NCBI GenBank assembly: GCA_004293905.1
Contig: RDZE01000021.1
Coordinates: forward strand, 28,769 to 92,768
Source: Cytophagales bacterium
GTDB lineage: Bacteria > Bacteroidota > Bacteroidia > Cytophagales > Microscillaceae
Direction of reading: 5' to 3'
DNA: 64,000 bases
Shown: positions 6,544 through 52,940 of the stretch, piece by piece
How the letters are laid out: every line of letters starts with the position of its first letter
How positions within the stretch are numbered: the first letter of the stretch is position 1
Notes under the pieces: model-generated
Seen by the model: only the letters and a program-made list of their open reading frames with translations
Databases searched by the model: none
Told to the model about the DNA's origin: nothing
Translations under genes and position numbers: made by a program

Positions 6544-6550
6544 GATATAA

Positions 6551-11602: not shown

Positions 11603-11660
11603 AGTTTTAATTTGTGAGGTTTTTACCAAATAGCGCACAAAATAAGAGATTATTTTTCAG

Positions 11661-11699: not shown

Positions 11700-11710
11700 T
11701 GTTAGTAAGT

Positions 11711-12508: not shown

Positions 12509-12605
12509 AAATGAGATAAATAGATAAAATAAAAATACAAAGTATCAAAGGGTGAAATTATAAAAATAAAAAGACAATGAAAAACAAGAGGGCATATTTT
12601 TGATA

Positions 12606-12642
12606 AAAAAATACTACAATTTTGGAACAAAAAATACTACAA
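12606..12642 (+). repeat. 14-bp direct repeat AAAAAATACTACAA x2 in a divergent promoter region
   Basis: Copies at 12606..12619 and 12629..12642 (23-bp period), 38-74 nt upstream of the ABC ATPase ATG at 12680. Confidence 0.6.
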
Positions 12643-12679
12643 AATAGTTATTATTCCAACTCCATAAAAGTACAACTCC

Positions 12680-13393: not shown

Positions 13394-13399
13394 AGAACC

Positions 13400-14368: not shown

Positions 14369-14400
14369 CTTTAAAAAAAACATTTACATCTAAAAATACC

Positions 14401-15522: not shown

Positions 15523-15550
15523 AAACCTAAAAACAAAAGCTACTTTTGAT

Positions 15551-15558
15551 TAGTTTTG
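15551..15558 (+). promoter_or_regulatory. Candidate -7 promoter box TAGTTTTG for menA
   Basis: Exact TAnnTTTG match 22 nt upstream of the ATG at 15580. It overlaps the TTG (15556) that the ORF track used as a start, which argues against that start. Confidence 0.4.
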
Positions 15559-15579
15559 CAAAAAAATAGAATTTTTTTT

Positions 15580-23106: not shown

Positions 23107-23226
23107 AATAAAGAGGGTTTAATGGATAAATAAAATAAGAAGATGTATAGAGAGAACAAAAAAAACGTGCTTAGAGTTTTTTGGGGTAAAAATGAGGGTA
23201 GAAAAAGGGTAGGTAAAAAAATGAAG

Positions 23227-23308
23227 TGCTCACAGGGAGAGTCGAACTCCCACACCTTGCGGCACCACCCCCTCAAGATGGCGTGTCTACCAATTCCACC
23301 ATGTGAGC
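23227..23308 (-). tRNA. tRNA-Leu (anticodon GAG)
   Basis: Minus strand: GCTCACA TG GTGG AATTGGTAGA CAC G CCATC TTGAGGG GGTGG TGCCGCAAGGTGT GGGAG TTCGACT CTCCC TGTGAGC A. It has a 7-bp acceptor stem, a long variable arm and a T-loop TTCGACT. No CCA is encoded. Confidence 0.9.
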
Positions 23309-23377
23309 ATTGTAGAATTTGAGGTGCAAAGGTAAGGAAGTAATAATATAAAAACAAATTTTTGGGTTTAATATTTT

Positions 23378-27977: not shown

Positions 27978-27993
27978 AATATTTTTGTAGGTG

Positions 27994-28001
27994 CAAAAAT
28001 A
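27994..28001 (-). promoter_or_regulatory. Candidate -7 promoter box (TATTTTTG on minus strand)
   Basis: Plus-strand caaaaata is TATTTTTG on the minus strand, 17 nt upstream of the ATG at 27977 and immediately after the terminator hairpin. Confidence 0.35.
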
Positions 28002-28002
28002 C

Positions 28003-28026
28003 AAAAAGCAGTCTGATTAGACTGCT
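28003..28026 (-). terminator. Intrinsic terminator after the lipoprotein gene
   Basis: 8-bp stem agcagtct (28007..28014) / agactgct (28019..28026) with loop gatt. The minus strand continues with TTTTT (plus-strand a-run 28003..28007). Confidence 0.7.
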
Positions 28027-28064
28027 TCGCAATGCATATTTTTTGAATGAGTGATAAGAGTAAA

Positions 28065-28979
28065 TTAGTTGATGATTTTATCTCTTATTTTGATAGAGGT
28101 TTTTAGGATATTATCTAAATCTTTATCTGTAAGATTGATTTTGCTAGAAGTGTTGTCTTCTACGATTAGTATACCATTTTCTTCTTTTGTTACAGTAGGC
28201 TCTTCAGATTGGCTAAATTCTATTTTTACATTGTTATATATTTTTTGTAACTCTCCAAGTTCATTTCTTAGCTCTTTGATTTTAGCATTTTCTTCTTCAT
28301 AAAATGAAAGTAATAGCATTAATTGGTCTAAGATAATTTTTTGCTCTCCTATTCTATTGTTAAGCAATTCATTAGGTGTTTTTTTAGCTACTTCGCAAGT
28401 GATATAGAGCATTTCGAGCCATCCTCCTGTTACGATGAGGACTGTTAAATCGGCACGTTCTCTTTTTTGTAAATTTTCGTTGATTCTTTCAAGGTTAAGG
28501 TTCGTAACGATGAGTAAAGAGTCTAAATTATTGCTATTAGTGGCTAATTCTTTGATGGTGTTGAAGTCAAAAAATTCACCGATTTGTAAGCCATCTGCCA
28601 TTTTTTTGATAGAGTTCAAGAAGTAAAGCGCATCTTGAGTTTGGGAGTAGATATTGGAGTAGCCCAAATCAGCACTGTATACGCCCAAGTTAAGAGCCTT
28701 TTTGAAGTCAGTAGTATAGCTTGCGGTTTTATCTGTTGAGTTCAACAAGCCTTTATTATATTGAATTCCTAAATCTTTGATAAGGAAAGAAATTTCAAGG
28801 GGAGAAGGAATAGAGCGTACTATATCAGCGAGCACGTCTTTTGAAATGGGAGGGTTATCAGATTTGTTTTCTGTATTTTCTTTGTTGTCAGTTCCGCTTT
28901 TTTTAGAATTTTTTTTAGAGTCGCCTCCGCAAGCTCCTACTAAAAGGGCAACGATGAATAAAAATGCTAACTTTTTCAT
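28065..28979 (-). CDS. Hypothetical lipoprotein
   Basis: 304 aa. Signal plus lipobox MKKLAFLFIVALLVGACGG, a Lys/Asn-rich linker, then a largely helical body. It lies 15 nt downstream of the ABCG-like gene. Confidence 0.55.
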   Translation of the reverse strand: MKKLAFLFIVALLVGACGGDSKKNSKKSGTDNKENTENKSDNPPISKDVLADIVRSIPSPLEISFLIKDLGIQYNKGLLNSTDKTASYTTDFKKALNLGVYSADLGYSNIYSQTQDALYFLNSIKKMADGLQIGEFFDFNTIKELATNSNNLDSLLIVTNLNLERINENLQKRERADLTVLIVTGGWLEMLYITCEVAKKTPNELLNNRIGEQKIILDQLMLLLSFYEEENAKIKELRNELGELQKIYNNVKIEFSQSEEPTVTKEENGILIVEDNTSSKINLTDKDLDNILKTSIKIRDKIIN

Positions 28980-28994
28980 ATATACAAATTGTTT

Positions 28995-31900
28995 TTATTT
29001 GTTTATTTTTTTAGATTTAATTTTATTGAAAGAAATTTTACTTGTAATGTTAGATAAATTTTTTACCGCATCATAGTACAGTGTAATATATAATAGTATA
29101 GTAAAAAGCCATATTACGGTTAGGTTGTAGTAATAAGTATCAAACAAAAACCCTGCAAAATGCTTTTTGGGCGCAAGAAAATGAGTGCGATAATCATACC
29201 AACCTTCCGCATCGGAGGGTTCGTGGTAGATAGGGTCTATCATTTGTACTAATTTATCATTGCCTTCTATAAGACCATTGAGTAAAGATTCTTCTTTTTT
29301 TACAAGCCTCGCAAGTTCTAAGTTAAAGTATTGCGCTTTGAGGTCGTCATAGGTAGAGTCTGCTTCTTTGAATTCATCGTAGATTTTATCGCGTTCTTTG
29401 GCGGCATTGTTCATTTTTTTGGTAGCGTCTTTGTCTACTTTATCTAAGTAGGTTCTGATACGCTCCGCAATTTTTTCGTTGAATTTTTCTTCTGTAATAT
29501 CTTCTTCAGGGTTGATGCCTGTGAGGTATTTTTTGTAATCTTCTTTACGATTGAGTTCGTTTCGGAGTATTCTAAGGTCTTTTTCGTATTTTTTCTGTAC
29601 CGAATCTTCCCTTTTTTTCATTTGTTGATTTTTGACTAAATCATCTACCTTGTTTTTTAGGTTAGGCACCCAATATTTGGTAAGTACACGATTGATGCTT
29701 TCTTCTTTCTCAAGGTCGTAGTAGTCTATTTCGTAGTAGTTGTGTCTGAAATTATTGACGGCTATAGCTTCGTAAGCCCATCGCGATACCATAATGTCAG
29801 CCAAAAGGGGTACTTTGTCTTTATCAGCAATTACTTGGTTCATTTTATCATATTTGAAGATGATACCACTCATAATCATTTGAGGTATAAGCAACAAAGG
29901 AATCGTGATGTAAATAGTTACTACGGAATTGAAGGTAGAGGAGATATTCAGTCCTAACATATTAGCAAAACACGATACTGAGAAGAGTACTATCCAATAG
30001 TTCATCAATTCACCATCTATACTTAGTACGCTATTGCCTATGAGCACAAAAGTAAAAGTTTGGATGGCTGAAAGTGAAAATAAAATAAAAACTTTTGAAA
30101 CGAGGTAGGCGGCACGGCTTAAATTAAGGAAACGTTCTCTTTTTTGTATTTTTCTATCTCTGATGATTTCTTCCGCGCTGACTGTAAGCCCCATAAATAG
30201 TGAAATGATGATACAAATGAGCACATAAGCGGGGATATTGTCGTTGTACATAAAATTGTATTTTCCTTCTTCCTCGGGGTCGTTCTGAAAACGAATGACA
30301 TAGGAAAGTAAAAATGCCAACACAGGTGCTTCTAATAAATTGATAAGCATGTATTGTTGGTTACTTATCTTAGAAAGAAAATCGCGAATGGTAAAGATGA
30401 ATGTTTGTATTATCAACGAGGGTAGTTTGATAGAGGTTGGGGGTTTTTCGTTGATGGTTTCTACGGCTTCGAGCGATGGTTCTATATTTTGTTTGTATTT
30501 TTCATTCCAACCTTCGGGCGATATTTTTCTTTTGTTAGTGTATTGCCCGTATTCATTTACTACTTGTCTTTCTAAGAGGTTGAATACTTGTTCAGGGTTA
30601 AGGTTGCTCTTGTCGCCTTCTACTTGGTTGGTTTCTTTTTTGAAATAAGTGATGGCTTCGAGTGGGTTGCCATAGTATACAGGGTATCCGCCTTTGTCGA
30701 GGATTACCATTTTATCGAACATGCGGTATATCTCAACAGAGGGTTGGTGTATTACTACGAAAATGAGTTTTCCTTTGAGTGAAAGCTCTTTGAGTAAGTC
30801 CATTACATTTTCAGAATCGCGTGAGGAGAGTCCAGAGGTGGGCTCATCTACAAAAAGCACAGCGGGTTGTCTGATGAGTTCAAGGGCTATATTAAGGCGT
30901 TTTCTTTGCCCTCCGCTTATTTTTTTATTGAGTACATTCCCTACTTTTAGGTCTTTGATGTGGTCTAAGCCTAAATCTCCTAATACATCTATGACGCGTT
31001 CGTCTATGTCTTTTTCGCTCATATCGCCAAAGCATAATTTGGCATTGTAGTAGAGGTTTTGGTATACGGTTAATTCTTCTATGAGTAAGTCGTCTTGGGC
31101 TACATATCCGATAACGCCTTCTACTTTTTTGCGGTTTTCGTGGATATTGATGCCATTAATGAGTACTTCTCCTTTGGAGGGCTTCTCTATGCCTGAAAGT
31201 ACATTGAGTAGGGTTGTTTTACCTGCGCCACTACCTCCCATGATGCCTACTAATCTGCCTTGTGGCTCGGAGATGAATACGCCTCTTAGCCCTAATGCGC
31301 CATTGGGAAATTTGAATTCTATGTCGTTGGCTGTAAAAGAAACTCTGGTATCTAAGTGGCTTTCTAAGAAAATACTTGTTACATCGCTATAGTATACAGC
31401 CCTTGCTTGTTGTGTTTTTATGGAACTTCCGCTAGGGTATAAGTATGTAATTTGGTTTTTGAGAGGGAAGCCATTGAGCATTGGCAATTCTTCGCCAAGG
31501 TATTTAACGAAATAAATATCGGCAGATTTTACGTGTAGAAAAACGATATTTCCTTCAAGTTCTGGTACAATGAGATGTTTGAAGGCAGTTACTTCAAAAG
31601 GTTTTTCTTTGGAGGCAACTAATATGGTACTATGGTTAAAGTCGTATATTTGTGTGGAAAGTACGAATCCTTCTATGGCTTTGTACTCTTCTTTGTCGAA
31701 GTTAAATGCGCTTGATACGGTATCTATGATTTCACGTCTTTGTTTGCTGAAATTTCCGTCTGAGGCTACAAGTTCTAATAGTTTTACTACGATAAGTACT
31801 TTTTGCCCTTGCTCGAGTTCGCTATTGATTTGTTTGCAATAGTTTAGTATCTTCACCGATTCTTTCATTGTGATTTTATCGGGTCCGGGTTTTCCATATT

Positions 31901-32066
31901 CAGCTACTTGGTCATAGAGTTGGCTATAAGTGTTAATGGAATCTTCGTCTAATTGTTCTCTGAAATAATTCACTACAAAGTCTCTTTCGCGGGCAGTAGC
32001 ACCGCCTGCTTGTTTGGTGATAATTCCAAAGAGATTTGTTAATGCTTTTAATATATTTTCACTCAT
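28995..32066 (-). CDS. ABCG/ABC-2-type transporter fusion: TerB-like N-domain + unassigned beta-rich segment + NBD + 6-TM permease with a long coiled-coil insert
   Basis: 1023 aa. aa 1-135 are TerB-like (LLELVASDGNFSKQRREIIDTVSSAFNFDKEEY). The NBD has GGSGAGKTTLLNVLSG, ISGGQRKRLNIALEL, LFVDEPTSGLS and VIHQPS, which is the White/ABCG signature set. The ABC-2 permease covers aa ~550-775. aa ~780-970 are K/E-rich coiled coil, followed by a last TM helix (aa ~976-1000). Confidence 0.8.
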   Translation of the reverse strand: MSENILKALTNLFGIITKQAGGATARERDFVVNYFREQLDEDSINTYSQLYDQVAEYGKPGPDKITMKESVKILNYCKQINSELEQGQKVLIVVKLLELVASDGNFSKQRREIIDTVSSAFNFDKEEYKAIEGFVLSTQIYDFNHSTILVASKEKPFEVTAFKHLIVPELEGNIVFLHVKSADIYFVKYLGEELPMLNGFPLKNQITYLYPSGSSIKTQQARAVYYSDVTSIFLESHLDTRVSFTANDIEFKFPNGALGLRGVFISEPQGRLVGIMGGSGAGKTTLLNVLSGIEKPSKGEVLINGINIHENRKKVEGVIGYVAQDDLLIEELTVYQNLYYNAKLCFGDMSEKDIDERVIDVLGDLGLDHIKDLKVGNVLNKKISGGQRKRLNIALELIRQPAVLFVDEPTSGLSSRDSENVMDLLKELSLKGKLIFVVIHQPSVEIYRMFDKMVILDKGGYPVYYGNPLEAITYFKKETNQVEGDKSNLNPEQVFNLLERQVVNEYGQYTNKRKISPEGWNEKYKQNIEPSLEAVETINEKPPTSIKLPSLIIQTFIFTIRDFLSKISNQQYMLINLLEAPVLAFLLSYVIRFQNDPEEEGKYNFMYNDNIPAYVLICIIISLFMGLTVSAEEIIRDRKIQKRERFLNLSRAAYLVSKVFILFSLSAIQTFTFVLIGNSVLSIDGELMNYWIVLFSVSCFANMLGLNISSTFNSVVTIYITIPLLLIPQMIMSGIIFKYDKMNQVIADKDKVPLLADIMVSRWAYEAIAVNNFRHNYYEIDYYDLEKEESINRVLTKYWVPNLKNKVDDLVKNQQMKKREDSVQKKYEKDLRILRNELNRKEDYKKYLTGINPEEDITEEKFNEKIAERIRTYLDKVDKDATKKMNNAAKERDKIYDEFKEADSTYDDLKAQYFNLELARLVKKEESLLNGLIEGNDKLVQMIDPIYHEPSDAEGWYDYRTHFLAPKKHFAGFLFDTYYYNLTVIWLFTILLYITLYYDAVKNLSNITSKISFNKIKSKKINK

Positions 32067-32099
32067 TTTTATTCAGAGCTTTTGAGAGATTAGATAATG

Positions 32100-32131
32100 A
32101 AAAAAAAGCTAAGATGTTGAGTTATCTTAGC
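32100..32131 (-). terminator. Strong intrinsic terminator after the SiaC-like gene
   Basis: 8-bp stem gctaagat (32108..32115) / atcttagc (32124..32131) with an 8-nt loop. It is followed on the minus strand by TTTTTTTT (plus-strand a-run 32100..32107). Confidence 0.8.
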
Positions 32132-32177
32132 AAGAAGTTTTTGGGTTATAGCGAAAGCTATTTCGGTTGGTAAAAAA

Positions 32178-32546
32178 TTAGTATGACTTGAATTCGAAGG
32201 GTACTTCTACCAATTCAGAGAATTCAGTTCCTGCTTCTTCCATATCTTCATCGTCTTCGTGGTAGTACCAAGTGATAGTAGTACCATTGATTTTTTCTAA
32301 TTTGGAGAGGATATCTAAGATAAGTTTAGAGGAAGCTGTGTTGAAGTATTCCAATTTGAAGATAAAGTTGGTTTCTTCGTTGGCTTGTTTGGAATATTCT
32401 TCCAACCATTCAAGAACGGGTTTGTAGAAATCGGCGGCATCTTCGGGTAGGGAGCGACCTGAGATTTCAAATATACCGTTGTTTTTGTCTAATATTATTT
32501 TGGGCGTATCTTCGGTGCCTTCTAAGTTAATTACATCTAACGACAT
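32178..32546 (-). CDS. SiaC-family regulatory phosphoprotein (DUF1987)
   Basis: 122-aa acidic protein. TPKIILDKNNGIFEISGRSLPEDAADFYKPVLEWL and EYFNTASSKLILDIL blocks are typical of DUF1987. Confidence 0.75.
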   Translation of the reverse strand: MSLDVINLEGTEDTPKIILDKNNGIFEISGRSLPEDAADFYKPVLEWLEEYSKQANEETNFIFKLEYFNTASSKLILDILSKLEKINGTTITWYYHEDDEDMEEAGTEFSELVEVPFEFKSY

Positions 32547-32609
32547 TGCTATACAAGATTTAAGTTGTAAAGATTTAATTCAGTTGCAAATATAGTATTT
32601 TTTTGGGAA

Positions 32610-33176
32610 TTAGTCATCTTTTCCAGATTCTTTGGTACGAGGTACTATAGTTTTTAGTGAAAAAAATGAAATTCTGTTATTGATAGGTTCGAAATCGAAC
32701 TGCAGTTTTTGTCCTGATTTTCGTGCCATATCGATGAAGCCTAAGCCTGCTCCGCCTTTCGGGGAGATATCGCCTGTTTTGATAATATCTTTATAAAGGG
32801 CTTTTAGTCCGTCTTTATCAAGGTTATTGATGCGCTCTATTTTTTCGTGCAATATGGCGACTTTGTCGTTTGAGACGGGATTGCCTGAGGAGATGACATA
32901 CATATCTTCTTGTTTTCCGACCATAAAAATAGCGCTGTTTTTCCCTCTGTAGAGGTCGTCATCGACTTCATCGGAGTGTTTGACGATGTTTTGTAAGCAC
33001 TCTACCATTACATTGAAAACTTTACGTTTGATGCTTGCATCTTCACCTATAGCATCCATGTTTCTTTCAGCCATTGCTAATACGGATTTGGTAATTTCCT
33101 GCGTAAATTCGCCCTCATATACTAATATGAGAGAGCGGTCTAGCATGGTTTTGTGCAACTCATAGATGTACTTCAT
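32610..33176 (-). CDS. SiaB-family protein kinase (GHKL-fold, anti-sigma-kinase-like)
   Basis: 188 aa. N-box-like VMVECLQNIVKHS and G-box GGAGLGFIDMARKSG. The size and its position between a PP2C gene and a DUF1987 gene match the SiaB pattern. Confidence 0.7.
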   Translation of the reverse strand: MKYIYELHKTMLDRSLILVYEGEFTQEITKSVLAMAERNMDAIGEDASIKRKVFNVMVECLQNIVKHSDEVDDDLYRGKNSAIFMVGKQEDMYVISSGNPVSNDKVAILHEKIERINNLDKDGLKALYKDIIKTGDISPKGGAGLGFIDMARKSGQKLQFDFEPINNRISFFSLKTIVPRTKESGKDD

Positions 33177-33180
33177 ACTT

Positions 33181-33216
33181 GTTGAACTTTTAGGTGTAAA
33201 ATAAGTTGAACTTTTA
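33181..33216 (-). repeat. 12-bp direct repeat (plus GTTGAACTTTTA; minus TAAAAGTTCAAC) x2 immediately upstream of the SiaB-like start
   Basis: Copies at 33181..33192 and 33205..33216 (24-bp period). The proximal copy ends 4 nt from the ATG at 33176. Confidence 0.6.
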
Positions 33217-33346
33217 TACTTAATTATTGAATAAAATTTATTTAACTAACTAACTACCTTTTAGCAAGGGCTTTGGGTAATTTTCTTTACTTTGCTGAAA
33301 TTGTTGCTAATTACTATATTTTTTTTTTAAAATCATACAATTTTAT

Positions 33347-36300
33347 TTAAAATTTTGCACCAATCACTAATATATCGTCCGTTTGTTTTGTTTCTCCTTT
33401 CCAACTTTCAAATGCGTCATCTAAGATGTTGTGCATTTGGTCAAATTTACCTTTTTTGATGCCATCTAAAATTACTTCTCTCATTTTTCTTGGGGAGAAT
33501 TTTTTATTATCTGCGCCTCCGAATTGGTCTCCGTATCCGTCAGAAGAAATATAAAAAGAGTCTCCTTTTTCTATTTGTATGATGTGGTTTGTAAACCCAT
33601 CTTTTTTCTTATAGTGTTCTCCACCTCCACCAACAGGCATTTTATCTCCTTTTACTTCCTCTATTTCTGTGCCATTATTTTTGAAGAAGAACATGGGGCG
33701 GTGCGCGCCTGCATATTCAAGTGTATTTTCTTGTAGGTTTATTTTACAAAGTGCAATATCCATTCCATCTTTTGTAACTGCCTCTGGAGAGTCTTGTTTT
33801 AGGGTTTTTGCCATCTCTACGTCAAGAAGATTGAGCACATCGCTGGGGTGTATTGCTTTACCAGAGTTGAGTACGTTGTTGATGGTAAAGAATCCAATGA
33901 TTGAGATAAGGGCACCTGGTACACCGTGTCCTGTACAGTCAACGGCGGCTAAGTAAATATCATCGTCTTTTTTGAAGAACCATGGGAAGTCTCCTGAAAC
34001 CACATCGCGGGGTTTGTATAAGATGAATGAATCAGGGAGGTAGTTTTTCAGAAAACTTGCACTAGGGAGTATGGCTTCTTGTATTCTTTTGGCGTAGTTG
34101 ATACTTTCTGTAATTCTACGGTTGGTTTGTTGTACTGCGAGTTCTATGAGTTTGCGCTCGGTGATGTCGTGTGATACTAAGAGTATAGATTCTATGGCTT
34201 GAGTTTCGCTGTATTCGGGTATGGCATTGACTTGCATGATGTGTTTTTCTTTGTCAGTGATGGGAAAATCCATCTCAAGACTTACTTTTTCTTTTTTCTC
34301 CACGATATCGTCAATGATTTCTTTCCATCGTTTGATAATTCGCCCATCTAAAATAATATCATCAATGCGTTTTCTGATGTATTCTTCTTTTCTGATGTTG
34401 GTCAGTCTTTCTATAGTAGGGTTGATGTAGAAAATTGTACCATCTGTACTGAGTCGGGTGATGAGGTCAGGTGAATTTTCAGAGAGAGCTTGCATTTGTC
34501 CTCTCATTCGGGCTTCTTTTTCGGCGAGTCTTCTTTCGGTGATATCGCGCGAGTTCACAACTATACCTTGTATGGCGGGGTCATTGAGTAGGTTAGTACC
34601 TGTGGCTTCGAGCCATACGCGACCTGCGATTTTGGATTTATAGTTGATTTGTATGGTTACTTTCTTGTATGGTTCGGCTATCAGTGTTGCGAACATGGTT
34701 TTGAAGGCTTGCTGACCTTCAGCATTCATATACTTGAGGTCTTGTATGCCTATCATGTCTTCTACGGTATAACCCAATATTTTTTCTACGGAGGGGCTTA
34801 TTTCTCTGATTTCTCCTGTTTCTTTGTATATGGTGATGATTTCAGAAGAGTTTTCAAGTAAGATGGCTGTTTTAGCGTTCGCAATTTGCACTTTTTCTAC
34901 TTCTGCTTCTAGTCGTATGTTAGTGAGTTTGAGTGTTTCTTGCGTTGATTCCATTTCTTCGGCGTTCTGCGTCAATATTTGTTGTTGGTATTGTAGGCTT
35001 CGGCTCATTTCTTGGGATTCGTCAAGCAGTTTTTGGGTACGTTCTTGTACTTTTATGTTGAATACTGTGCGTGCAATGATTTCGCTTACTTCTTCTACGA
35101 ATCGTACATCGCGAGAAGAGAATTTTTCGAATCCTGCAAATTCTAATACTCCTAATACTTTTTCTTCTCTATCTACCAGTGTGATGAGTGGTGTGATGAG
35201 TAGGGCTGTGGGTTTTCGGTCGCCTAATAAACCAGAGGTGATGGTTATGTATTCGTCTGGTATTTCGGTTCTTAGGATTGTGTCTTGCTCTGCTACGGCT
35301 TGTCCTATTAGTCCTTCTGCAAATCGGAATTGTGCTTTTATGTATTTTCTTTTATTATAGGCATAGCTTGCGTTCATTTCTATGAGTACGTCTTGTGCGT
35401 CTTGCTCTATAGAGTTAAGCGTGTAAAAAGCACCTTGTACGGCATTGATTTTTCGGCAAATGTACTCTACTACAGCTTCCCCGAGGCTTTCTATGTTGTT
35501 TCGTTCGCGCAAGATATCACCTATTTCTGCACGTCCTACTACTATCCAGTTTCGTTCTTCGTCTTTCTTTGCGGCTTGTTGAATGCTATTGCGCATAGTA
35601 AGTAAGGCTATAGCAAGTGCATCGTTTTCGCTGGAGGGGTGGAATTGTGCATTGAAATCACCTTCTCCTATTTTGTGTGCAAATTCGGCTGTGTTTTTTA
35701 GATTTGTTACTAATTCGTTAAGTAGTTGGCTCATTTCTCCAAATTCGTCTGCTGTACTTTGTTCAAGTTCTTTGGGCAGTACTCCTTGTGAGAGTAGTTC
35801 GATGGTATCTTTGAGTGATTGTAGGGGTTCGATGAGTATTCTGGAGAAAATAACGCCTATGATGACAGAGATAATGATTACTACTGCTCCTGCGATGAAG
35901 AACACATTGCGGAGGCGATAGGAAGGTGCGTATATTTCGTTGTTATCTACTTTTACAATGACCCCCCAATTTACTTCGGGTATAAAACGCCAAGTAGCCA
36001 ATACTTGCTCGCCTCTGTAGTCAGTGCCTGTGGTGTAGGTTTCGTATCCATATCCTCTTACGGCTTTGTCTAAAAACTCACTTTCGCCTACAACTGCATA
36101 TTTTTTGAGAGCAGCGTCTTTATCTTCCTTGAGTGGGTTGAGGTAGGTGATTTTATTTCCGTATCTTTTGATGAGCAATATTTCGCCTGTTTTTCCTAAT
36201 CCGAGCGTATCACTGGCTATTTCGTAGATATAATCCATCGTTACTTCATAGACAATGAGCCCTAATATTTGTCTGGTTTTGTCAATGACGGGTGCATAAA

Positions 36301-36907
36301 TGGAAAAATATTTTTCTTTTTTATTTTGAGAGTTGTATACCCCTGTAAAAATAATAGAATCGCCTGCTGAAGTAATGGGGTCGCCTTCTTCATTGAGGTA
36401 GTAATCTTTGATTTTACGGGCACTAAGGTCTGTATTTTTATCTGTTTTGAATATTATTTTTCCTTCTTTATCGGTGAGGTATATATTCTTGATTTGGTAG
36501 AAGTTGCTTTGTAATGCTTTGAGTAGGTCGTATACTTCGTTATCGTTTTTGTAGATGATGTTGTTGGTTTCTATGTTGTTTTGTGTAGTGTCGTTTTGTT
36601 TTTGTAAGGAATCTTTTTTGAGTGTTATATTATTATTATCATTGTTAATGAGTAATTCTTTTTGTAGTTTTTCACGAACGGCTTTTAGATTGGAAGAGAA
36701 TCGTAGGTTTTCTTTGAGTTTATCAAGGAAGATGTCTATTTTCTGTGATTTTAATTTGGCAATCACATTGACTGACTCAAGATAACGCTCTTCTATGGAG
36801 CTTTCGCTGAGTTGATAAGCAATAAAACTCACAGATACTGTTGATATGAGTACTATGAATATAACCAGTAAGGTAATTTTTGTGCTTATTTTTATTTTTT
36901 GGAGCAT
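33347..36907 (-). CDS. Membrane sensor Ser/Thr phosphatase: TM - Cache-like ectodomain - TM - HAMP - GAF - coiled coil - PAS - PAS - PP2C/SpoIIE (SiaA-like)
   Basis: 1186 aa. TM helices at aa ~11-32 and ~335-356. HAMP aa ~357-410. GAF aa ~455-612 (AVQGAFY, FAEGLIGQAV, VLGVLEFAGF). PAS ends NSRDITERR and VSHDITERK. PP2C blocks SGDFPWFF, AAVDCTGHGVPGAL, DGMDIALC and SSDGYGDQFGG. Confidence 0.85.
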   Translation of the reverse strand: MLQKIKISTKITLLVIFIVLISTVSVSFIAYQLSESSIEERYLESVNVIAKLKSQKIDIFLDKLKENLRFSSNLKAVREKLQKELLINNDNNNITLKKDSLQKQNDTTQNNIETNNIIYKNDNEVYDLLKALQSNFYQIKNIYLTDKEGKIIFKTDKNTDLSARKIKDYYLNEEGDPITSAGDSIIFTGVYNSQNKKEKYFSIYAPVIDKTRQILGLIVYEVTMDYIYEIASDTLGLGKTGEILLIKRYGNKITYLNPLKEDKDAALKKYAVVGESEFLDKAVRGYGYETYTTGTDYRGEQVLATWRFIPEVNWGVIVKVDNNEIYAPSYRLRNVFFIAGAVVIIISVIIGVIFSRILIEPLQSLKDTIELLSQGVLPKELEQSTADEFGEMSQLLNELVTNLKNTAEFAHKIGEGDFNAQFHPSSENDALAIALLTMRNSIQQAAKKDEERNWIVVGRAEIGDILRERNNIESLGEAVVEYICRKINAVQGAFYTLNSIEQDAQDVLIEMNASYAYNKRKYIKAQFRFAEGLIGQAVAEQDTILRTEIPDEYITITSGLLGDRKPTALLITPLITLVDREEKVLGVLEFAGFEKFSSRDVRFVEEVSEIIARTVFNIKVQERTQKLLDESQEMSRSLQYQQQILTQNAEEMESTQETLKLTNIRLEAEVEKVQIANAKTAILLENSSEIITIYKETGEIREISPSVEKILGYTVEDMIGIQDLKYMNAEGQQAFKTMFATLIAEPYKKVTIQINYKSKIAGRVWLEATGTNLLNDPAIQGIVVNSRDITERRLAEKEARMRGQMQALSENSPDLITRLSTDGTIFYINPTIERLTNIRKEEYIRKRIDDIILDGRIIKRWKEIIDDIVEKKEKVSLEMDFPITDKEKHIMQVNAIPEYSETQAIESILLVSHDITERKLIELAVQQTNRRITESINYAKRIQEAILPSASFLKNYLPDSFILYKPRDVVSGDFPWFFKKDDDIYLAAVDCTGHGVPGALISIIGFFTINNVLNSGKAIHPSDVLNLLDVEMAKTLKQDSPEAVTKDGMDIALCKINLQENTLEYAGAHRPMFFFKNNGTEIEEVKGDKMPVGGGGEHYKKKDGFTNHIIQIEKGDSFYISSDGYGDQFGGADNKKFSPRKMREVILDGIKKGKFDQMHNILDDAFESWKGETKQTDDILVIGAKF

Positions 36908-36983
36908 GGTATTCTGTTCCTTTTTTGATTTTATGATGGGTGTCTTTTTATTTTATATTCCAAACTTCGTGCAAAAATTTACA

Positions 36984-37805
36984 CTAAGATAATAATTTAT
37001 GTTCGTTTTTTAAAAATTCTTCTGCAATGAGGCTGGCTAATTCTTCTAATATTTGTTTTTGAGTTTCATTTATTTGTTTAAAATAAGCTAATTCCACTAC
37101 TCCTACAATTTGTTTTTCCATAGTTTGTATAGGTATGATTTGTAGTGTTTTGGGCTGTGATTTCCCTAAGCCTGATACAATATCGATATACCCTTCGGGT
37201 AAATTATTGATTTCTATGGCATTGCCTGTTTTGACTACTTGTCCTAATAGCCCTTCACCTGCTTGAAAGCTTGTTTTTTGACTATCATTGGTAAAATAGG
37301 CATAGTTGGCTACCATTGAGAAAGTGTCTTGTGATTCATTTCGGAGGTAGATAGCTCCTTGTACAGCTTCAGTATGGTTACAAACTTTCCAAAGTATTTT
37401 TTCTAATTTTGTTTGTTCGTTTTCGTTTGTAAGTTGAATGTCTTTGATAAGTGGTTCTAATAGGTTTGTATTTTGATGACTTCCATTGTTTTGGTTTTCA
37501 TTTTGGTTATTGCTTTGTGCATTATTCGAGGAAATATATCTATCTACATACACCAATTTGATGCGTCCTCTTCTGCTTACTAATAATAATAGTATAGCCA
37601 ACAGTGCTAAGGCAGCTTGTACTCCTGAGATGAGGAAGAGATTGAAGGTTACTTCGTTGAAATAGGCTATATTTTCAGCATTTTTTCTCAAATTGAGTTG
37701 TTCTGCCAATTGGCTATGCCATTGGTAGAGTTGGTAGATGCTAAAAAAAGTACCTAATATAAATAATAGTACTGCTAAGGTACTGATGAAACTAATCCTT
37801 TTCAT
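36984..37805 (-). CDS. Two-TM membrane protein with Asn/Gln-rich linker and cytoplasmic GAF domain
   Basis: 273 aa. TM helices at aa ~5-27 and ~55-77. Linker SSNNAQSNNQNENQNNGSHQNTN. GAF blocks AVQGAIYL, NYAY, AGEGLLGQVV, LPEGY and IVGVVELAYF are paralogous to the GAF of the 1186-aa phosphatase. ATGA overlap with cheB. Confidence 0.75.
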   Translation of the reverse strand: MKRISFISTLAVLLFILGTFFSIYQLYQWHSQLAEQLNLRKNAENIAYFNEVTFNLFLISGVQAALALLAILLLLVSRRGRIKLVYVDRYISSNNAQSNNQNENQNNGSHQNTNLLEPLIKDIQLTNENEQTKLEKILWKVCNHTEAVQGAIYLRNESQDTFSMVANYAYFTNDSQKTSFQAGEGLLGQVVKTGNAIEINNLPEGYIDIVSGLGKSQPKTLQIIPIQTMEKQIVGVVELAYFKQINETQKQILEELASLIAEEFLKNEHKLLS

Positions 37806-38419
37806 TTCTTTTTTTTGATTTTTTGGTCGATGTACAACAATAAATCAATGATTTTATCTACGCTGAGTGTGTGGTTGATTTTGGTGATTTTCAATGCAGA
37901 AGTAGGCATTGTATCTATTAAACATTCGGCGGGGTCTTGCACTACGGTAAGAGCTCCTTTTTCGCTGGCAGCTTTCATGCCCAATGCGCCATCTTTGTTA
38001 GCTCCTGAAAGAAGTATAGCAATGAGTTTATGGCGGTAATTATGGGCGGCTGTTTGAATCATATAATCTATAGCGGGTCTTGAATTATTGAAAAGTTCTT
38101 CTGTAGAGAGGGCAAAAGTATTGCCAAGTTCTACGCATAGATGATAATTGGCTGGTGCTAAGTAGATTTTTCCTTTTTTGATGGGTTCTTTGTCTGTGGG
38201 TTCTTCTATATTGATAGTACTTTTTATGTTGAGTGCTTCAGTGAACCCATTGCGTACATGTCTTAATCTGTGTAGGCACATCATGATAGGGAGCTCAAAA
38301 TCGGTAGGTAAGCTACTAAGTATTTTCGTAACTACTTGGAAACTACCAGCCGAGCCGCCTATAGCAATGGCTTTATAAGGGAGTGATTCGTCTATTTCGT
38401 ATTTTTGTGATGCGCTCAT
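37802..38419 (-). CDS. cheB: Protein-glutamate methylesterase, CheB catalytic domain only (no receiver domain)
   Basis: 205 aa. AIGGSAGSFQ (Ser nucleophile block), CLHRL (His) and LSGANKDGALG (Asp block). There is no N-terminal REC. Confidence 0.8.
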   Translation of the reverse strand: MSASQKYEIDESLPYKAIAIGGSAGSFQVVTKILSSLPTDFELPIMMCLHRLRHVRNGFTEALNIKSTINIEEPTDKEPIKKGKIYLAPANYHLCVELGNTFALSTEELFNNSRPAIDYMIQTAAHNYRHKLIAILLSGANKDGALGMKAASEKGALTVVQDPAECLIDTMPTSALKITKINHTLSVDKIIDLLLYIDQKIKKKK

Positions 38420-38422
38420 AGC

Positions 38423-39253
38423 TTAGTCTTTGACCTTTTTATAAATTTTCTCTTCATTGTTTACTACTACAAATTTATTGGCTATTTCGCACCAAATAAG
38501 TGATTCTTTTGAACCTACTGCTAAATAACAATATTTATGAAGGCTCTCATGGAAAGTTTTTAAGACAGTATTCTGTAATTGTTGATTGAAATAAATCATT
38601 ACATTTCGGCATAATATGAGGTCAAATTTAGCAAAACTTCCTCCACTGACCAAATTATGCTCGCGCCATTCTACATTTTTGACCAATTCTTTGTCCATAA
38701 TTGCTTTTCCTGCCTCTTCTTTATAATATTTTTGCAGTAAAAAACTACCTTCATATCTTTCATAGTTTTTTTGGTTTACTTCCATATTCTTAATGGGGTA
38801 TTTTCCTTCGCGTGCTTTGGCTAAGATGGCATTGTCAACATCTGAGGCAACTATTTTGGCTTTACCGAGTAGGTTCATTTCTGTAAGAAGAATAGCCATA
38901 GAGAAAACTTCTTCTCCGGAGGAACAGCCCGCATGCCAAATATTGATTTCGCGGTCGTTTAGGAGTAAATTGGGAATAATGCTTTCTTTGAGTTCGCGCC
39001 AAAAAGTGGGGTCTCTGAACATTTCAGTAACATTGACGGTGATTTCAGAAAGAAATTCTTGAAAAAATTTGTGGTCTGCGTCATTTAGGCGGTCTATGAG
39101 TGCATCGATAGAGGCATATTTGTATATCTCGATAACTCTTTGGATACGTCTTTTAAAAGAAGACATGGCATAATTGCCGAAATCAAAATCAAATCGTTTT
39201 TGAATGATGTCAGTAATTTTTTTTAGTTGCGCTAATTCAATTTCCTGTTGCAT
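38423..39253 (-). CDS. cheR: CheR-type protein-glutamate O-methyltransferase
   Basis: 276 aa. FRDPTFW, IWHAGCSSGEEVFSMAILL and FDLILCRNVMIYFN are hallmark CheR blocks. 3-nt gap to cheB. Confidence 0.85.
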   Translation of the reverse strand: MQQEIELAQLKKITDIIQKRFDFDFGNYAMSSFKRRIQRVIEIYKYASIDALIDRLNDADHKFFQEFLSEITVNVTEMFRDPTFWRELKESIIPNLLLNDREINIWHAGCSSGEEVFSMAILLTEMNLLGKAKIVASDVDNAILAKAREGKYPIKNMEVNQKNYERYEGSFLLQKYYKEEAGKAIMDKELVKNVEWREHNLVSGGSFAKFDLILCRNVMIYFNQQLQNTVLKTFHESLHKYCYLAVGSKESLIWCEIANKFVVVNNEEKIYKKVKD

Positions 39254-39286
39254 AAAATACTGGGTTTATGGTGAAATTTGGATATA

Positions 39287-42124
39287 CTAACCTGCTCCTT
39301 CTTTTTGTTGAGGAGGTCCTTGTGCATCTTTTGCTTTTACTAATATTTCGCCTTTTATAGGTTCTCGGCGCATAATGATACGGCGGAAGAGCAACTCAAG
39401 TGGTGCTAATGAAATGGCTAAAATGATGTTCATTCCTAATTTGAAAAAAGAAATACCACCTGTAAAGGCTTCTACATAAGGCTCAAAAACGAGGAAGAGA
39501 AACTCAAACATGGTGATAATGGTAACCATTGATATCACATAGGCGATTCTTGAGGTAAGTTTGGTTTTGGCAATACGTGAGAGGGCTATAGAGAGTGCCA
39601 TCAGTAAGGCAAAAAATGCGCTTTGTAGGGCATAAAACCAAGTGGTTTCCCAAAAAGGAGGGTTTATTTTGAAAGTAAAGACTTGTTCTTGACTGGGCTG
39701 TCCGAAGATGTTTTTGGCTCTTACGTGGAATTTGTATTCGCCACTTGGCAAAAATGGAAAAGAGATAATGGCTTGTCTTTCCCAACTTGACCATTCATAT
39801 TTTTTCTTGTCGTTGAGTCCTTCAAGCCAATATTGGTATTCCGTTGCAAATTCGTTTCGGAAGAAGGGGGCAGCTATTTGGAAGGTAAAACTGAGGGCAT
39901 TGTCGCCATAGTCCAATACTAAATCTTGTAATGGAAGAAGAATTCCTTGTTTATTCTTGACTGTTCTGATGAAGATATTGAATTTTTCTCTAAGGTCTAT
40001 TTGTGCGTTGGCATCTATACGATGTAAATGACCATTGTTTACTACCCATATATATCCTTTTTTATCGATATGAATTTCTTGTACCTCATCAAAAAGGGAA
40101 AAGAAAGCCATTTTTGAGGCGTAGTTATTGGTAGTTTGGCTTATGTTTTGCCAGTTTCCTGTGGCATTGCTCCAAGTGAAAGCATCTTGCGAGAAAATAA
40201 GCCTTGCTTTGCTGTGGTAGTATTTTTGAAATTCAGGGTCTTTGACTAATTTTTTATTTTGAAAATCAAAAATGAACACACCATTAGAGAGAAAAAAAGT
40301 TATTTTATTGTTAATAAGTCTTACAGCTATGTTTTCAGAGTAGCTTTCAGGAAAATCATACATTTGGTATTCGGCAAATTTTCCATCAGGTTTTAATTTT
40401 ATAGCCACGGCTTTGTTCTCAGCCCCTAACCATAAACCACCTTGGTATTCTAAAATGGAATATACGTTTTCGTCTAAGTTTTTAAGTTGGTCTGTTTGTT
40501 TCCAAGCGCCATTGACAAATTCTAAAAAATAAATACCTTTGTTAGTGCCTACATATATTCGGTTAGATTGTATGCGAGAAACGATGATGTAGTGAATATA
40601 AGTATCTTGAATGAGGGTATTGCCTACAAATCCGCCTTTTCCTGCTACTACTTCATAGAGTCCTGTATTGGCGGCTACTAATACACGATCGCGGAAAGTT
40701 ACCATTTGTTTGCATTTTCCATTTATGTTATCTACTTGTTTGTAAATAAATGGAATAGATTCTAAGGCATAGGCTTTCCTGCCTTCGGCAGTGCTTCGGT
40801 GTTGTATGGCTTTTTCAGTAGTACTGATAACACGAGTAGGAACTTCTTCTAAGAGAGAACTTTCTTTGGTTTTTATTTTTCTTTTGAGGTCTTTATGCCC
40901 TTCTACGGAGTGTGTATAAGTTCGTATGTTGTTTTTTTCTTTGGGTTCTGTAATCTGCACTATTCTTGTTACGGTTTCTACAGTTTTCAGAAATTTTGCT
41001 TCTTTTTTGATATAACCCTCTACTTCCTCAAATCGGTTAACCTTTACGAGATAGAAAACACCTTGACTTGTACTTACAAAAGTGGTATCTCCTAAATGTG
41101 CTACGGAGGTTACGTTGCCATCAATACCTGCATAAGAAGAGAAAGTGCGTACAGGCAGTTTTAGGTCAGCACGTGTGATGCCTTTGTCATGTGTAAGCCA
41201 AAGTCCCCCTTCACGATCGATGCACATGGCAAATACTTCATCATCAGGAAGTCCTGTTTGATAATTGATTATCTTTTGTGTTTTACCTGTTTTCTTTTCT
41301 ACCATAATAGCCCCTCCAGTAACTAAGGCAGTAATGAAACTATTTTCATTGACATCCATACTAAAGTTAAGAATATTACCTTTTAGGTATTCTTCGGCTA
41401 CTAAAAAAAATAAAGAAAACTCTTTTCCATCAAAGAGGTAGTGCCAATCGTTATTAGCCCCAAACATTATGTTGTCTTTGTCATAATTGCAAAAGGGTTT
41501 AAGTTCTAAATATTTAAAATAGTCCCCCTCTTCTACTAATACGAATTGTTTGCCTTGCATTCTATGCAGCCCTTGGTCGGGAAGGTTGAGGTATGGGGTA
41601 TCTTTATGGAGTAAAAAACCTGTGAATTTGGTTCCTGCTACGGGCGGATACCAAACTTCTTCTGTCTTCAGGGTGGTTCTATTTACTTTTATTAAGGCTC
41701 TTTCACTATAGAAGTAAACATGATTTTGGGCTATGACAATTTGCTTGATTTGCCCAAATGCTTTGCTGGGCTCAGTAATGGACACATACTCTTCTTGTCC
41801 AAATCGATTGTAACGGATATAACCGAAGTTATCGCGGCATCCTACATAAATTCTTCCGTTTTGACTGTCTTTGGCAAAGCTATAAGGAGTAGTACGTGTG
41901 GCAATTACGCCCCAAGCAACACCATCATAAGTAAGTATCCCTTTAGTATTAGCAAAATACATAATACCATTGTTTCCTTGTACAATGGCTAAATTTTGGT
42001 TGTCGATGTTAGAGAGTGGTATTTTATAGTTTTGCAAAAATATATCTCCCTCTTGTGCATAAACATTGTTCCAAGCAAGGAAATATATACAAAACAACAC
42101 TACCCGAGTATAATTTTTCAGCAT
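39287..42124 (-). CDS. Orphan extracytoplasmic sensor: signal peptide + two-component-regulator beta-propeller repeats + Y_Y_Y-like domain + 3 TM helices, no output domain
   Basis: 945 aa. Signal peptide VVLFCIYFLAWNNVYAQ. Repeated G-x-W-hydrophobic-G/T propeller strands (GLWLTHDKGI, GGLWLGAENK, GYIWVVNNGHL). Y_Y_Y-like FATEYQYWLEG...SGEYKFHVRAKN. TM helices lie within aa ~828-912, followed by only a ~35-aa tail. Confidence 0.7.
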   Translation of the reverse strand: MLKNYTRVVLFCIYFLAWNNVYAQEGDIFLQNYKIPLSNIDNQNLAIVQGNNGIMYFANTKGILTYDGVAWGVIATRTTPYSFAKDSQNGRIYVGCRDNFGYIRYNRFGQEEYVSITEPSKAFGQIKQIVIAQNHVYFYSERALIKVNRTTLKTEEVWYPPVAGTKFTGFLLHKDTPYLNLPDQGLHRMQGKQFVLVEEGDYFKYLELKPFCNYDKDNIMFGANNDWHYLFDGKEFSLFFLVAEEYLKGNILNFSMDVNENSFITALVTGGAIMVEKKTGKTQKIINYQTGLPDDEVFAMCIDREGGLWLTHDKGITRADLKLPVRTFSSYAGIDGNVTSVAHLGDTTFVSTSQGVFYLVKVNRFEEVEGYIKKEAKFLKTVETVTRIVQITEPKEKNNIRTYTHSVEGHKDLKRKIKTKESSLLEEVPTRVISTTEKAIQHRSTAEGRKAYALESIPFIYKQVDNINGKCKQMVTFRDRVLVAANTGLYEVVAGKGGFVGNTLIQDTYIHYIIVSRIQSNRIYVGTNKGIYFLEFVNGAWKQTDQLKNLDENVYSILEYQGGLWLGAENKAVAIKLKPDGKFAEYQMYDFPESYSENIAVRLINNKITFFLSNGVFIFDFQNKKLVKDPEFQKYYHSKARLIFSQDAFTWSNATGNWQNISQTTNNYASKMAFFSLFDEVQEIHIDKKGYIWVVNNGHLHRIDANAQIDLREKFNIFIRTVKNKQGILLPLQDLVLDYGDNALSFTFQIAAPFFRNEFATEYQYWLEGLNDKKKYEWSSWERQAIISFPFLPSGEYKFHVRAKNIFGQPSQEQVFTFKINPPFWETTWFYALQSAFFALLMALSIALSRIAKTKLTSRIAYVISMVTIITMFEFLFLVFEPYVEAFTGGISFFKLGMNIILAISLAPLELLFRRIIMRREPIKGEILVKAKDAQGPPQQKEGAG

Positions 42125-52655: not shown

Positions 52656-52940
52656 TTATGCTTTTTCGCTTTCGCTGTCGTTTTCGTCTTTTTTAATTTT
52701 TTTTACGTATTGATTTATGTTATCAATCGTTGATTTTGCTTGTTCGCTGATTTTCTCCACGTTTTTGTTTAGTTCGTGCTTTAGGTTTCTTGTGGTTTCA
52801 TCTAATTTTTTGCTGATGTCATCTATTTTTTGACGTGCATTTTGTTTTCTTTCATCGTTGGTGATGATGATACCTACTGTTATGCCTGCAAAGAAGCCTG
52901 CTACGAAGCCCCAAATGAGATTTTCACTGTTATTGCTCAT
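52656..52940 (-). CDS. YtxH-domain protein
   Basis: 94 aa. N-terminal hydrophobic GFVAGFFAGITVGIIIT followed by a charged helical repeat region. Confidence 0.65.
   Translation of the reverse strand: MSNNSENLIWGFVAGFFAGITVGIIITNDERKQNARQKIDDISKKLDETTRNLKHELNKNVEKISEQAKSTIDNINQYVKKIKKDENDSESEKA

Follow-up and report, generated by a model that had tools for sequence, protein, structure and literature searches.

A 64,000-nucleotide (nt) stretch from a Cytophagales bacterium of the Microscillaceae (assembly GCA_004293905.1, contig RDZE01000021.1; hereafter, the window) carries a minus-strand gene cluster in which a CheR-type methyltransferase and a CheB-type methylesterase are joined to a SiaABC-type Ser/Thr partner switch and to an ATP-binding cassette (ABC) transporter. 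The cluster is a real, widespread and uncharacterised composite of known families. Specifically, in 55 of 61 homologous loci, cheR is followed, in unchanged order and orientation, by cheB, a gene for a protein with two transmembrane (TM) helices and a GAF domain (2TM-GAF), a phosphatase gene, siaB, siaC and the ABC gene. Based on the protein families and their order, we propose that these genes constitute one conserved Cytophagales signalling-to-effector unit with a switch, an output and a methylation input, a proposal for which we judge the prospects to be even.

The loci were obtained by scanning species-representative genomes with a CheR alignment. At least 587 stretches were matched and 80 loci were kept; cluster counts are based on the 61 loci in which 7.5 kb or more follows cheR. 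Gene order was established using tblastn with the window proteins. The ABC gene was the next gene after siaC in 59 of the 61 loci. The fixed order ends with siaC, the TerB/ABC gene (28995-32066 in the window) and a lipoprotein gene of about 300 codons (28065-28979), which was found 3' of the ABC gene in the loci reaching that far. Median intergenic gaps across the loci were 0-106 nt, and median identities to the window proteins were 74% for SiaC, 64% for CheB, 62% for SiaB, 61% for CheR, 53% for the ABC transporter, 46% for the phosphatase and 31% for 2TM-GAF. CheR homologues sharing 65-78% identity occur throughout Cytophagales-like Bacteroidota. The hosts are gliding Cytophagales of many lineages, and carriers include cultured Eisenibacter elegans as well as Marivirga, Flexithrix, Bernardetia, Ohtaekwangia and Chryseolinea. 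In E. elegans, a Microscillaceae metagenome-assembled genome (MAG) and a Ferruginibacter-labelled MAG, the cluster is the same and the genes upstream of cheR are unrelated or divergent.

An initial annotation, made from the window alone, had described a seven-gene unit that began at a beta-propeller gene upstream of cheR. The open reading frame (ORF) listing and the Pfam and NCBIfam profiles agree with that description as regards the seven minus-strand genes at 32178-42124, their domains and their junctions, which are 33, 3, -4, 76, 170 and 63 nt in order of transcription. The joining of CheR/CheB to the switch likewise extends far beyond the window genome. The limits of the unit are different. 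The propeller gene was matched in none of the 80 loci and the two genes downstream of siaC are conserved; the limits were therefore revised. The conserved unit comprises eight genes, 28065-39253, and 39287-42124 is a local addition.

Four clusters are reduced. Three of these (L070, L073 and L074) read cheR-PP2C-siaB-siaC-ABC-lipoprotein and the fourth (L076) reads cheR-siaC-ABC-lipoprotein. Across the loci, cheB and the 2TM-GAF gene occur only where the phosphatase has its GAF-coil part, and vice versa; all three are lost in the reduced clusters.

Three further loci have unusual arrangements. Positions 3379-18602 of contig CAZNHL010000017.1 (L077) hold two tandem cheR-cheB-GAF-PP2C-siaB-siaC modules of Cytophagales type and a TarH-HAMP-GAF-coil protein, which shows that block duplication of the regulatory module can occur. 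This contig, recorded under an uncultured Bifidobacteriaceae MAG, is probably mis-binned. In L075, two YfiR/HmsC-like (DUF4154) genes and a gene for a TonB-dependent-receptor plug-domain protein lie between the 2TM-GAF and phosphatase genes (12159-15814); in Pseudomonas, YfiR regulates a diguanylate cyclase from the periplasm. In L092 (Ga0558124_00305), the siaB-siaC-ABC region is split into many short gene calls. This fragmentation looks like the result of frameshift errors in the assembly, and such frameshifts may account for the many partial 'TerB family' proteins in databases.

The partner switch is well defined by profile and structure-based matches. Using Pfam, the phosphatase has the architecture dCache_1-HAMP-GAF-PAS-PAS-SpoIIE (SpoIIE, 8.5e-18). 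Its C-terminal 260 amino acids (aa) scored 206 bits against the SiaA model, NF038263, for which the equivalog cut-off is 700 bits; the protein is therefore a homologue of SiaA and not an equivalog. The best and sole PDB sequence match of the PP2C domain was SiaA-PP2C (6K4E, 3e-35), with the metal-binding Asp motifs aligned. The kinase scored 185 bits against SiaB_fam_kinase (NF038262; cut-off, 85 bits), matched DUF6272 at 4.6e-45 and aligned with Pseudomonas aeruginosa SiaB (6KKO_A, 4e-15). Similarly, the SiaC protein matched PF09345 (1.4e-40, 138 bits) and 6KKO_C (5e-13). Profile searches thus bear out the SiaB and SiaC assignments of the initial annotation, as they do those of CheR and CheB described below.

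The FNTASSK segment of SiaC aligns with LNTSSIK of 6KKO and 7E6G. Thr70 occupies the position of T68 (LLYLNTSSIK peptide), the experimentally mapped phospho-site of P. aeruginosa SiaC (PMC7647112), and was kept in every orthologue inspected. By homology, the phosphatase and the SiaB-family kinase are predicted to set the phosphorylation state of this residue. The MCPsignal (from methyl-accepting chemotaxis proteins, MCPs), CheA, CheW, REC, HisKA and GGDEF domains, and hence a SiaD-like diguanylate cyclase, were found in none of the 50 of 52 non-overlapping window ORFs scanned with Pfam, in agreement with the initial annotation; the other two, at 23079-23381 (100 aa) and 52656-52940 (94 aa), are too short for most of these domains.

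The output of the switch, unassigned at the outset, now has a candidate in the ABC transporter. The protein matches TIGR00955 (5.6e-75), and its best solved relatives are Cdr1, Pdr5 and ABCG2. It is a half transporter of the White/ABCG type in which ABC_tran precedes ABC2_membrane. The C-terminal extension contains a coiled coil and one additional TM helix. For residues 1-262, an AlphaFold 2 (AF2) model based on 17 homologues had a predicted local distance difference test score (pLDDT) of 86 and comprised a helical TerB-like domain and, C-terminal to it, a beta sandwich (residues 148-235; pLDDT 83-95). In a Foldseek search with the sandwich, nearly all of the top 45 matches were FHA domains, including those of Mek1, Rad53, CEP170 and DgcB; the best match had a probability of 1.0 and a target-normalised TM-score of 0.57. 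Mean column identity in the transporter was 0.79 for the TerB domain, 0.84 for the nucleotide-binding domain (NBD), 0.80 for the transmembrane domain (TMD) and 0.51 for the C-terminal extension; conservation of the N-terminal module thus nearly equals that of the ATPase and membrane domains. The adjacent lipoprotein has a signal peptide and a lipobox Cys and is predicted to be mostly helical. It had no match in Pfam or NCBIfam, and nothing meaningful was returned by a PDB profile search. A single-sequence AF2 model of this protein was unusable (pLDDT 45).

Two precedents bear on this assignment. In P. aeruginosa, siaD lies directly 3' of siaC and is co-transcribed with it, and unphosphorylated SiaC binds SiaD; the authors propose control of adjacent proteins as a general role of the DUF1987 family (PMC8457831). 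Rv1747, paired with PknF, is an ABC exporter that bears FHA domains and is controlled by Ser/Thr phosphorylation (PMC3138270). From these precedents and the adjacency of siaC and the ABC gene, which is kept in the reduced clusters as well, we infer that SiaC gates the transporter via the TerB/FHA-like module, which we consider a good deal likelier than its negation. The output of the cluster is probably an ABCG-type exporter and not motility or cyclic di-GMP (c-di-GMP).

Several observations weigh against this assignment. In the window, the siaC-ABC spacer contains a terminator-like hairpin with a T8 run (32131..32108, minus strand), at the point where the initial annotation had placed the end of the cluster. 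A comparable hairpin was present in 14 of 57 siaC-ABC spacers of other genomes; the hairpin is not a conserved feature. In L077, there is no ABC gene within 10 kb of the two tandem switch modules. The E value of the best Foldseek match was modest (6.6e-3), and no FHA profile was matched at the sequence level in the 17 transporter homologues using Pfam. In our alignment of the domain (A3), in which FHA positions were assigned from motif spacing and not by structural alignment, S181 and N198 are invariant and G199 nearly so. The residue after G172 is variable and not the canonical phospho-Thr-binding Arg, and no His follows S181. For these reasons, namely the missing Arg and His and the lack of a profile match, the domain is named FHA-like only. 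The degenerate pocket argues against simple phospho-Thr recognition.

The hairpin, the L077 arrangement and the missing phospho-Thr-binding residues would suit an arrangement in which the SiaC-like protein has its target outside the cluster (a cyclase, a sigma-factor antagonist or the gliding machinery, for example), with the transporter and lipoprotein conserved for another reason: they might export or import a compound sensed by dCache. We nevertheless consider such an arrangement unlikely. The ABC gene follows siaC almost without exception, and the spacer between them (median 106 nt) shrinks to 3-13 nt in some genomes. Further, siaC, the ABC gene and the lipoprotein gene are exactly what the minimal clusters retain, the transporter has a dedicated and highly conserved cytoplasmic regulatory module, and in P. 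aeruginosa the gene next to siaC does encode the SiaC target.

CheR and CheB are true members of their families. CheR matched the Pfam CheR (6.3e-44, 150 bits) and CheR_N (4.8e-9, 36 bits) profiles. Its best solved structure was that of Bacillus subtilis CheR (5FTW, 1.6e-29) and, in alignments that also included 1AF7, the catalytic residues are kept. CheB matched CheB_methylest (1.2e-46, 159 bits), and its triad of Ser (GxSxG), His and Asp is intact in alignments with 1CHD and 3SFT. At 205 aa, the protein consists of the catalytic domain only, a size that leaves no space for a REC domain. In the 80 loci, tblastn matches to the window CheB start within its first 15 residues. Feedback of the CheA type is therefore absent, and any adaptation would operate via conformation-dependent access to the substrate.

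These intact catalytic residues could also mean that CheR and CheB serve conventional chemoreceptors encoded elsewhere and that their adjacency to the switch is incidental; our searches covered the window for MCPs, CheA and CheW and the loci for MCPs and CheW. We regard this possibility as very improbable. In the loci with enough flank, gene order is fixed across many genera at 50-71% CheR identity, and incidental adjacency would not outlast such divergence. The CheB lacks the receiver that would couple it to CheA. Moreover, single-sequence MCP-hairpin and CheW probes had no tblastn match in 1.55 Mb from 85 cheR loci or in the window; a CheY probe of the same kind had none across the whole window. 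To our knowledge, Bacteroidota generally lack CheA/CheW/MCP systems, the sole established substrates of CheR and CheB are MCP-type receptors, and the CheR/CheB copies of non-flagellated Bacteroidota have never been assigned a role.

The 2TM-GAF protein, encoded between cheB and the phosphatase gene, matched GAF_2 (9e-12) C-terminal to an N/Q-rich linker. Residues 462-612 of the phosphatase share 34% identity with it (6e-20), indicating that the two GAF domains are paralogous. A gene of about 250-290 codons occupies this position in 59 loci and is conserved in the GAF core only. A word-indexed search for homologues returned six matches because the protein evolves fast outside that core; extraction by position from the loci worked instead. 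Neither the 2TM-GAF protein (P0001) nor the CheB had an exact match in the contig index. One possibility is that the protein is a membrane partner of the phosphatase. Its linker between TM2 and GAF (residues ~90-115) is of Asn/Gln-rich low complexity (SSNNAQSNNQNENQNNGSHQNTN) and cannot be aligned between orthologues.

A candidate methyl acceptor lies within the phosphatase. Regional conservation was calculated as mean column identity in an alignment of 53 full-length orthologues. The dCache domain was the least conserved (0.33), and the coiled coil between GAF and PAS was the most conserved (0.85), exceeding the GAF (0.72) and PP2C (0.74) domains. In a separate alignment of the coil (A2; 58 sequences), mean column identity was 83%, and the consensus was NERTRxLLxESQxMSxELQEKQEVLRQNAEEMQATQEELxRTNxxLEEQIEEVNRTQKRMQLLLENASEV. 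In its heptads, position d is Leu, Met or Val, position a is mostly polar (Gln, Asn or Ala), and positions b and c hold near-invariant, solvent-exposed Glu pairs at seven-residue spacing. Linker-coil residues that are exposed and yet conserved point to contact with a partner. The classical enterobacterial methylation-site consensus is Glu-Glu-X-X-Ala-Ser/Thr, and one pair of the coil consensus, EE-M-Q-A-T, fits it. The corresponding segment of the window protein is EEMEST (residues 650-655, 34943-34960).

The motif is nearly confined to coils of this kind. A regular expression for it matched once in the six-frame translation of the window, inside the phosphatase at 34960. In 1.37 Mb of loci it matched 82 times, always on the cluster strand: 57 matches were in the phosphatase family, 24 in HAMP-GAF-coil proteins encoded upstream of cheR and 1 elsewhere (about +8 kb). 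These accessory proteins, encoded immediately upstream of cheR in 23-26 loci, are ~460-820 aa long with two TM helices, and their coil reads ...MRAQEEEMRQNMEELQATQEEM..., with three EE[LM] heptads in register. One has a Tar-like ligand-binding domain and others have added PAS domains.

L073 also encodes, at 200-5627 (minus strand), a CHASE3-GAF-coil-HisKA-HATPase-REC3 hybrid kinase. The next gene is a second cheR paralogue (41% identity), after which comes a gene for a REC-HisKA-HATPase protein. The coil of the kinase is QAEELETQQHELRHANEELE, with EEL heptads as in the phosphatase. This arrangement hints that the pairing of CheR with GAF-coil proteins is more general than this cluster.

Taken together, these features make the GAF-linked acidic coil the best candidate methyl acceptor, a designation that, as judged from sequence, falls at or just short of an even chance of being correct. 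The fuller proposal is more tentative: CheR and CheB may reversibly methylate a non-MCP coil in the phosphatase, its sister HAMP-GAF-coil sensors and hybrid kinases, providing adaptation or memory for an exporter-gating partner switch.

The evidence opposing the methylation input is of several kinds. A longer chemoreceptor consensus, [ASTG]2-x2-[EQ]2-x2-[ASTG]2, is half matched by the coil, and the stripe of the window phosphatase is more diverged than the coil consensus. The coil was also considered as a homologue of the MCP signalling domain and rejected. Against Pfam MCPsignal, the coil consensus scored 15.7 bits (E=0.014; cut-off, 34.6 bits) amid generic coiled-coil families, and a PDB profile search with the coil returned generic coiled coils alone; the resemblance is therefore claimed at the level of the motif only. 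Interchange of Glu and Gln, a signature of CheB deamidation, was not specifically seen at the candidate sites, which are nearly always Glu and whose rare replacements show no preference for Gln. Finally, cheR is retained in the four reduced clusters that have neither cheB nor a local coil, which implies either another CheR target or a substrate supplied in trans. More generally, both target assignments, that of SiaC and that of CheR/CheB, draw on synteny and motif.

The reduced clusters are one reason to consider that CheR, with or without CheB, acts on another protein of the cluster, either SiaC or the N-terminus/TerB domain of the transporter, such that methylation and phosphorylation converge. 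In those clusters cheR adjoins the siaC-ABC-lipoprotein genes in the absence of cheB, the 2TM-GAF gene and the coil. Both proteins offer conserved segments: SiaC has an acidic helix, EDDEDMEEAGxEFSELVE, and the transporter N-terminus, MSEEILKALTQLFAIITKQDGG, is nearly invariant. However, neither segment matches the EE-x-x-A-[ST] spacing or contains the seven-residue repeat of acidic pairs. In addition, the presence of cheB tracks that of the phosphatase GAF-coil part and not that of siaC or the ABC gene, and it is the coil-motif accessory proteins and the hybrid kinase whose genes adjoin cheR genes. Convergence of this kind on SiaC or the transporter therefore seems to us improbable, and the GAF-linked coil is the candidate acceptor that we favour.

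The proposed mechanism is as follows. The sensor phosphatase and the SiaB-family kinase would set the phosphorylation of SiaC Thr70. SiaC, probably in one phospho-state only, would bind the cytoplasmic TerB/FHA-like module of the transporter and thereby switch the export of a substrate that is probably lipophilic or an envelope component, with the transporter acting jointly with the adjacent lipoprotein. CheR would methylate glutamates in the b/c acidic stripe of the GAF-PAS coil of the phosphatase, and the receiver-less CheB would demethylate or deamidate the same residues. Where present, the accessory TarH- or CHASE3-HAMP-GAF-coil proteins would be modified likewise. Methylation would alter the strength of the control that the sensor domains exert on the phosphatase, resulting in a layer of memory or adaptation that would function without CheA, CheW or MCPs. 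In the window genome, the propeller protein may add a second input.

The propeller gene, 33 nt upstream of cheR, is a real gene and a lineage-specific addition that encodes an output-less, sensor-like protein. Its product matched Reg_prop (1.6e-11) and Y_Y_Y (6.4e-8) in Pfam. The tail past the third TM helix is ~30 residues long, and HisKA, HATPase, REC and HTH outputs are absent. A counterpart was found by tblastn in none of the 80 loci, the closest relatives have none either, and matches in a metagenome scan (31-37% identity) were limited to the Y_Y_Y domain. Among 1.8 billion representative proteins, the closest full-length relatives (~900-990 aa) are likewise output-less and can be aligned over their whole length, three TM helices included, at 39-47% identity. 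Longer relatives carry a C-terminal SpoIIE domain (P0149, P0150 and P0154) or a HisKA-HATPase histidine kinase (P0152 and P0153); propeller-sensor phosphatases are thus known as single proteins elsewhere. The initial annotation had two ectodomain sensors, propeller and Cache, feeding the switch. As the propeller gene is absent from the other loci, such a two-ectodomain input holds at most for this lineage.

Positions of the cluster genes and of the features discussed above are listed in Table 1.

Table 1. Features of the cluster and its surroundings, with positions in the 64,000-nt window.
Feature	Position	Strand	Basis or remark
Propeller protein: signal peptide, Reg_prop/Y_Y_Y ectodomain, 3 TM	39287..42124	-	Pfam
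CheR-type glutamate O-methyltransferase	38423..39253	-	Pfam CheR_N and CheR; first gene of conserved unit
CheB methylesterase/deamidase catalytic domain	37802..38419	-	Pfam CheB_methylest; receiver-less
2TM-GAF protein	36984..37805	-	Pfam GAF_2 C-terminal to two hydrophobic helices
SiaA-like phosphatase: TM-dCache-TM-HAMP-GAF-S-helix/coiled coil-PAS-PAS-PP2C	33347..36907	-	Pfam
S-helix (ERT) and extended coiled coil, phosphatase residues 614-688	34844..35068	-	Candidate methyl-accepting segment
SiaB-family protein kinase	32610..33176	-	NF038262, DUF6272
SiaC-family phospho-threonine switch protein	32178..32546	-	PF09345; Thr70 codon 32337-32339
Hairpin (8 bp, 3 G-C pairs) and T8 in siaC/ABC spacer	32100..32131	-	Possible partial terminator
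ABCG/White-type half transporter, 1023 aa	28995..32066	-	Pfam TerB, ABC_tran, ABC2_membrane
TerB-like domain of transporter, residues 1-136	31659-32066	-	Pfam TerB
FHA-like beta domain of transporter, residues 148-235	31362-31625	-	AF2 model and Foldseek
Lipoprotein, LVGAC lipobox	28065..28979	-	Family-less; last gene of conserved unit
Stronger terminator-like hairpin (10 bp) and T-run, directly 3' of lipoprotein gene	28005..28028	-	

The hairpin directly 3' of the lipoprotein gene is likely the end of the transcription unit. Every ORF called from 19.6 to 55.2 kb has minus-strand orientation, a pattern from which greedy ORF selection may have dropped others; co-orientation alone is therefore uninformative as to operon membership in this region. 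The cluster is more than a chance arrangement because its gene order is kept in other genomes. An Rfam scan of 27.5-43.5 kb found no RNA families. A sigma-70 promoter scan gave fewer matches than in shuffled sequence and was therefore uninformative for a Bacteroidota genome.

The surroundings of the cluster have features of their own. The ~30 successive ORFs called on the minus strand at 19625-55192 coincide with a persistently positive GC skew. Directly 3' of the cluster, 24755-28004 encodes an MsbA-like ABC exporter (TIGR02203, 1.8e-145) and a DUF4403 protein, whose genes are not kept beside the cluster in the few loci that reach past the lipoprotein gene. Positions 1-12500 have a GC content of 0.29-0.34, compared with ~0.39 elsewhere, and carry polysaccharide biosynthesis genes. 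These encode a Wzx-like flippase, a glycosyltransferase, NAD-dependent epimerases/dehydratases, an AsnB-like amidotransferase, S-adenosylmethionine (SAM) methyltransferases and a UDP-GlcNAc 2-epimerase. This segment could be a variable O-antigen or exopolysaccharide island.

In the literature searched, we found nothing relevant on CheR/CheB in connection with SiaC, DUF1987, PP2C, Cytophagales, non-chemoreceptor substrates or CheB-CheR fusions, and no characterised system of this composition, as the initial annotation had supposed. That annotation had also left the methylation substrate unassigned; the EE-heptad coil of the phosphatase and its paralogues now stands as a specific candidate acceptor segment, and the cluster supplies a concrete, conserved context for the CheR/CheB of non-flagellated Bacteroidota. 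If the proposal is true, CheR and CheB are employed outside chemotaxis, and widely so, in a phylum thought to lack chemotaxis pathways, and SiaC/DUF1987 proteins have a new class of output, an ABC exporter in place of a diguanylate cyclase. Confirmation would show that adaptation by methylation is portable, a module able to join phosphatase and kinase sensors. It would also open a way into a regulated and uncharacterised pair of exporter and lipoprotein in Cytophagales of soil, marine and mat environments.

The cluster shares parts with four types of known system. Like other Bacteroidota sensors of the Reg_prop/Y_Y_Y type, the propeller protein combines this ectodomain with TM helices, and relatives of the ectodomain are fused to SpoIIE or histidine kinases. 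Unlike the hybrid two-component Reg_prop sensors, it has no cytoplasmic output, and it lies beside cheR in no other genome examined. The transporter resembles Rv1747 of the Rv1747/PknF pair of Mycobacterium tuberculosis in being an NBD-TMD exporter with an added N-terminal regulatory sandwich, here of FHA-like fold, and an adjacent gene for Ser/Thr phospho-signalling. It differs in having a single FHA-like domain, placed after a TerB-like domain and missing the canonical Arg and His. Further, the kinase of the cluster is SiaB-type (GHKL-like) and not Hanks-type, and would phosphorylate a separate switch protein.

The closest relative of the switch is SiaABCD of P. aeruginosa. The order phosphatase-kinase-switch protein is the same, all three proteins are homologous, the phospho-Thr position is conserved, and the target gene, here a candidate, is directly downstream. 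In contrast to SiaABCD, the cluster has no GGDEF protein and has instead an ABCG-type transporter with a TerB/FHA-like N-terminus and a lipoprotein. The sensor part of its phosphatase is much larger (dCache-HAMP-GAF-coil-PAS-PAS), and the phosphatase is preceded by CheR, CheB and the 2TM-GAF protein.

Finally, the cluster resembles the adaptation system of chemotaxis in that its CheR and CheB catalytic domains genuinely belong to the respective families and the candidate coil lies downstream of HAMP, with exposed Glu pairs in each heptad and the EE-x-x-A-T motif. Some of the accessory proteins that carry the motif are also like MCPs in having a Tar-like or CHASE3 periplasmic domain, two TM helices and HAMP. 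Unlike in chemotaxis adaptation, no MCP signalling hairpin or CheW was found in the loci or the window and no CheA in the scanned window ORFs, and CheB has no receiver. Unlike in MCPs, the coil follows GAF and leads into PAS-PP2C, or into HisKA in a paralogue, and is expected to form a parallel linker coil and not an antiparallel four-helix bundle.

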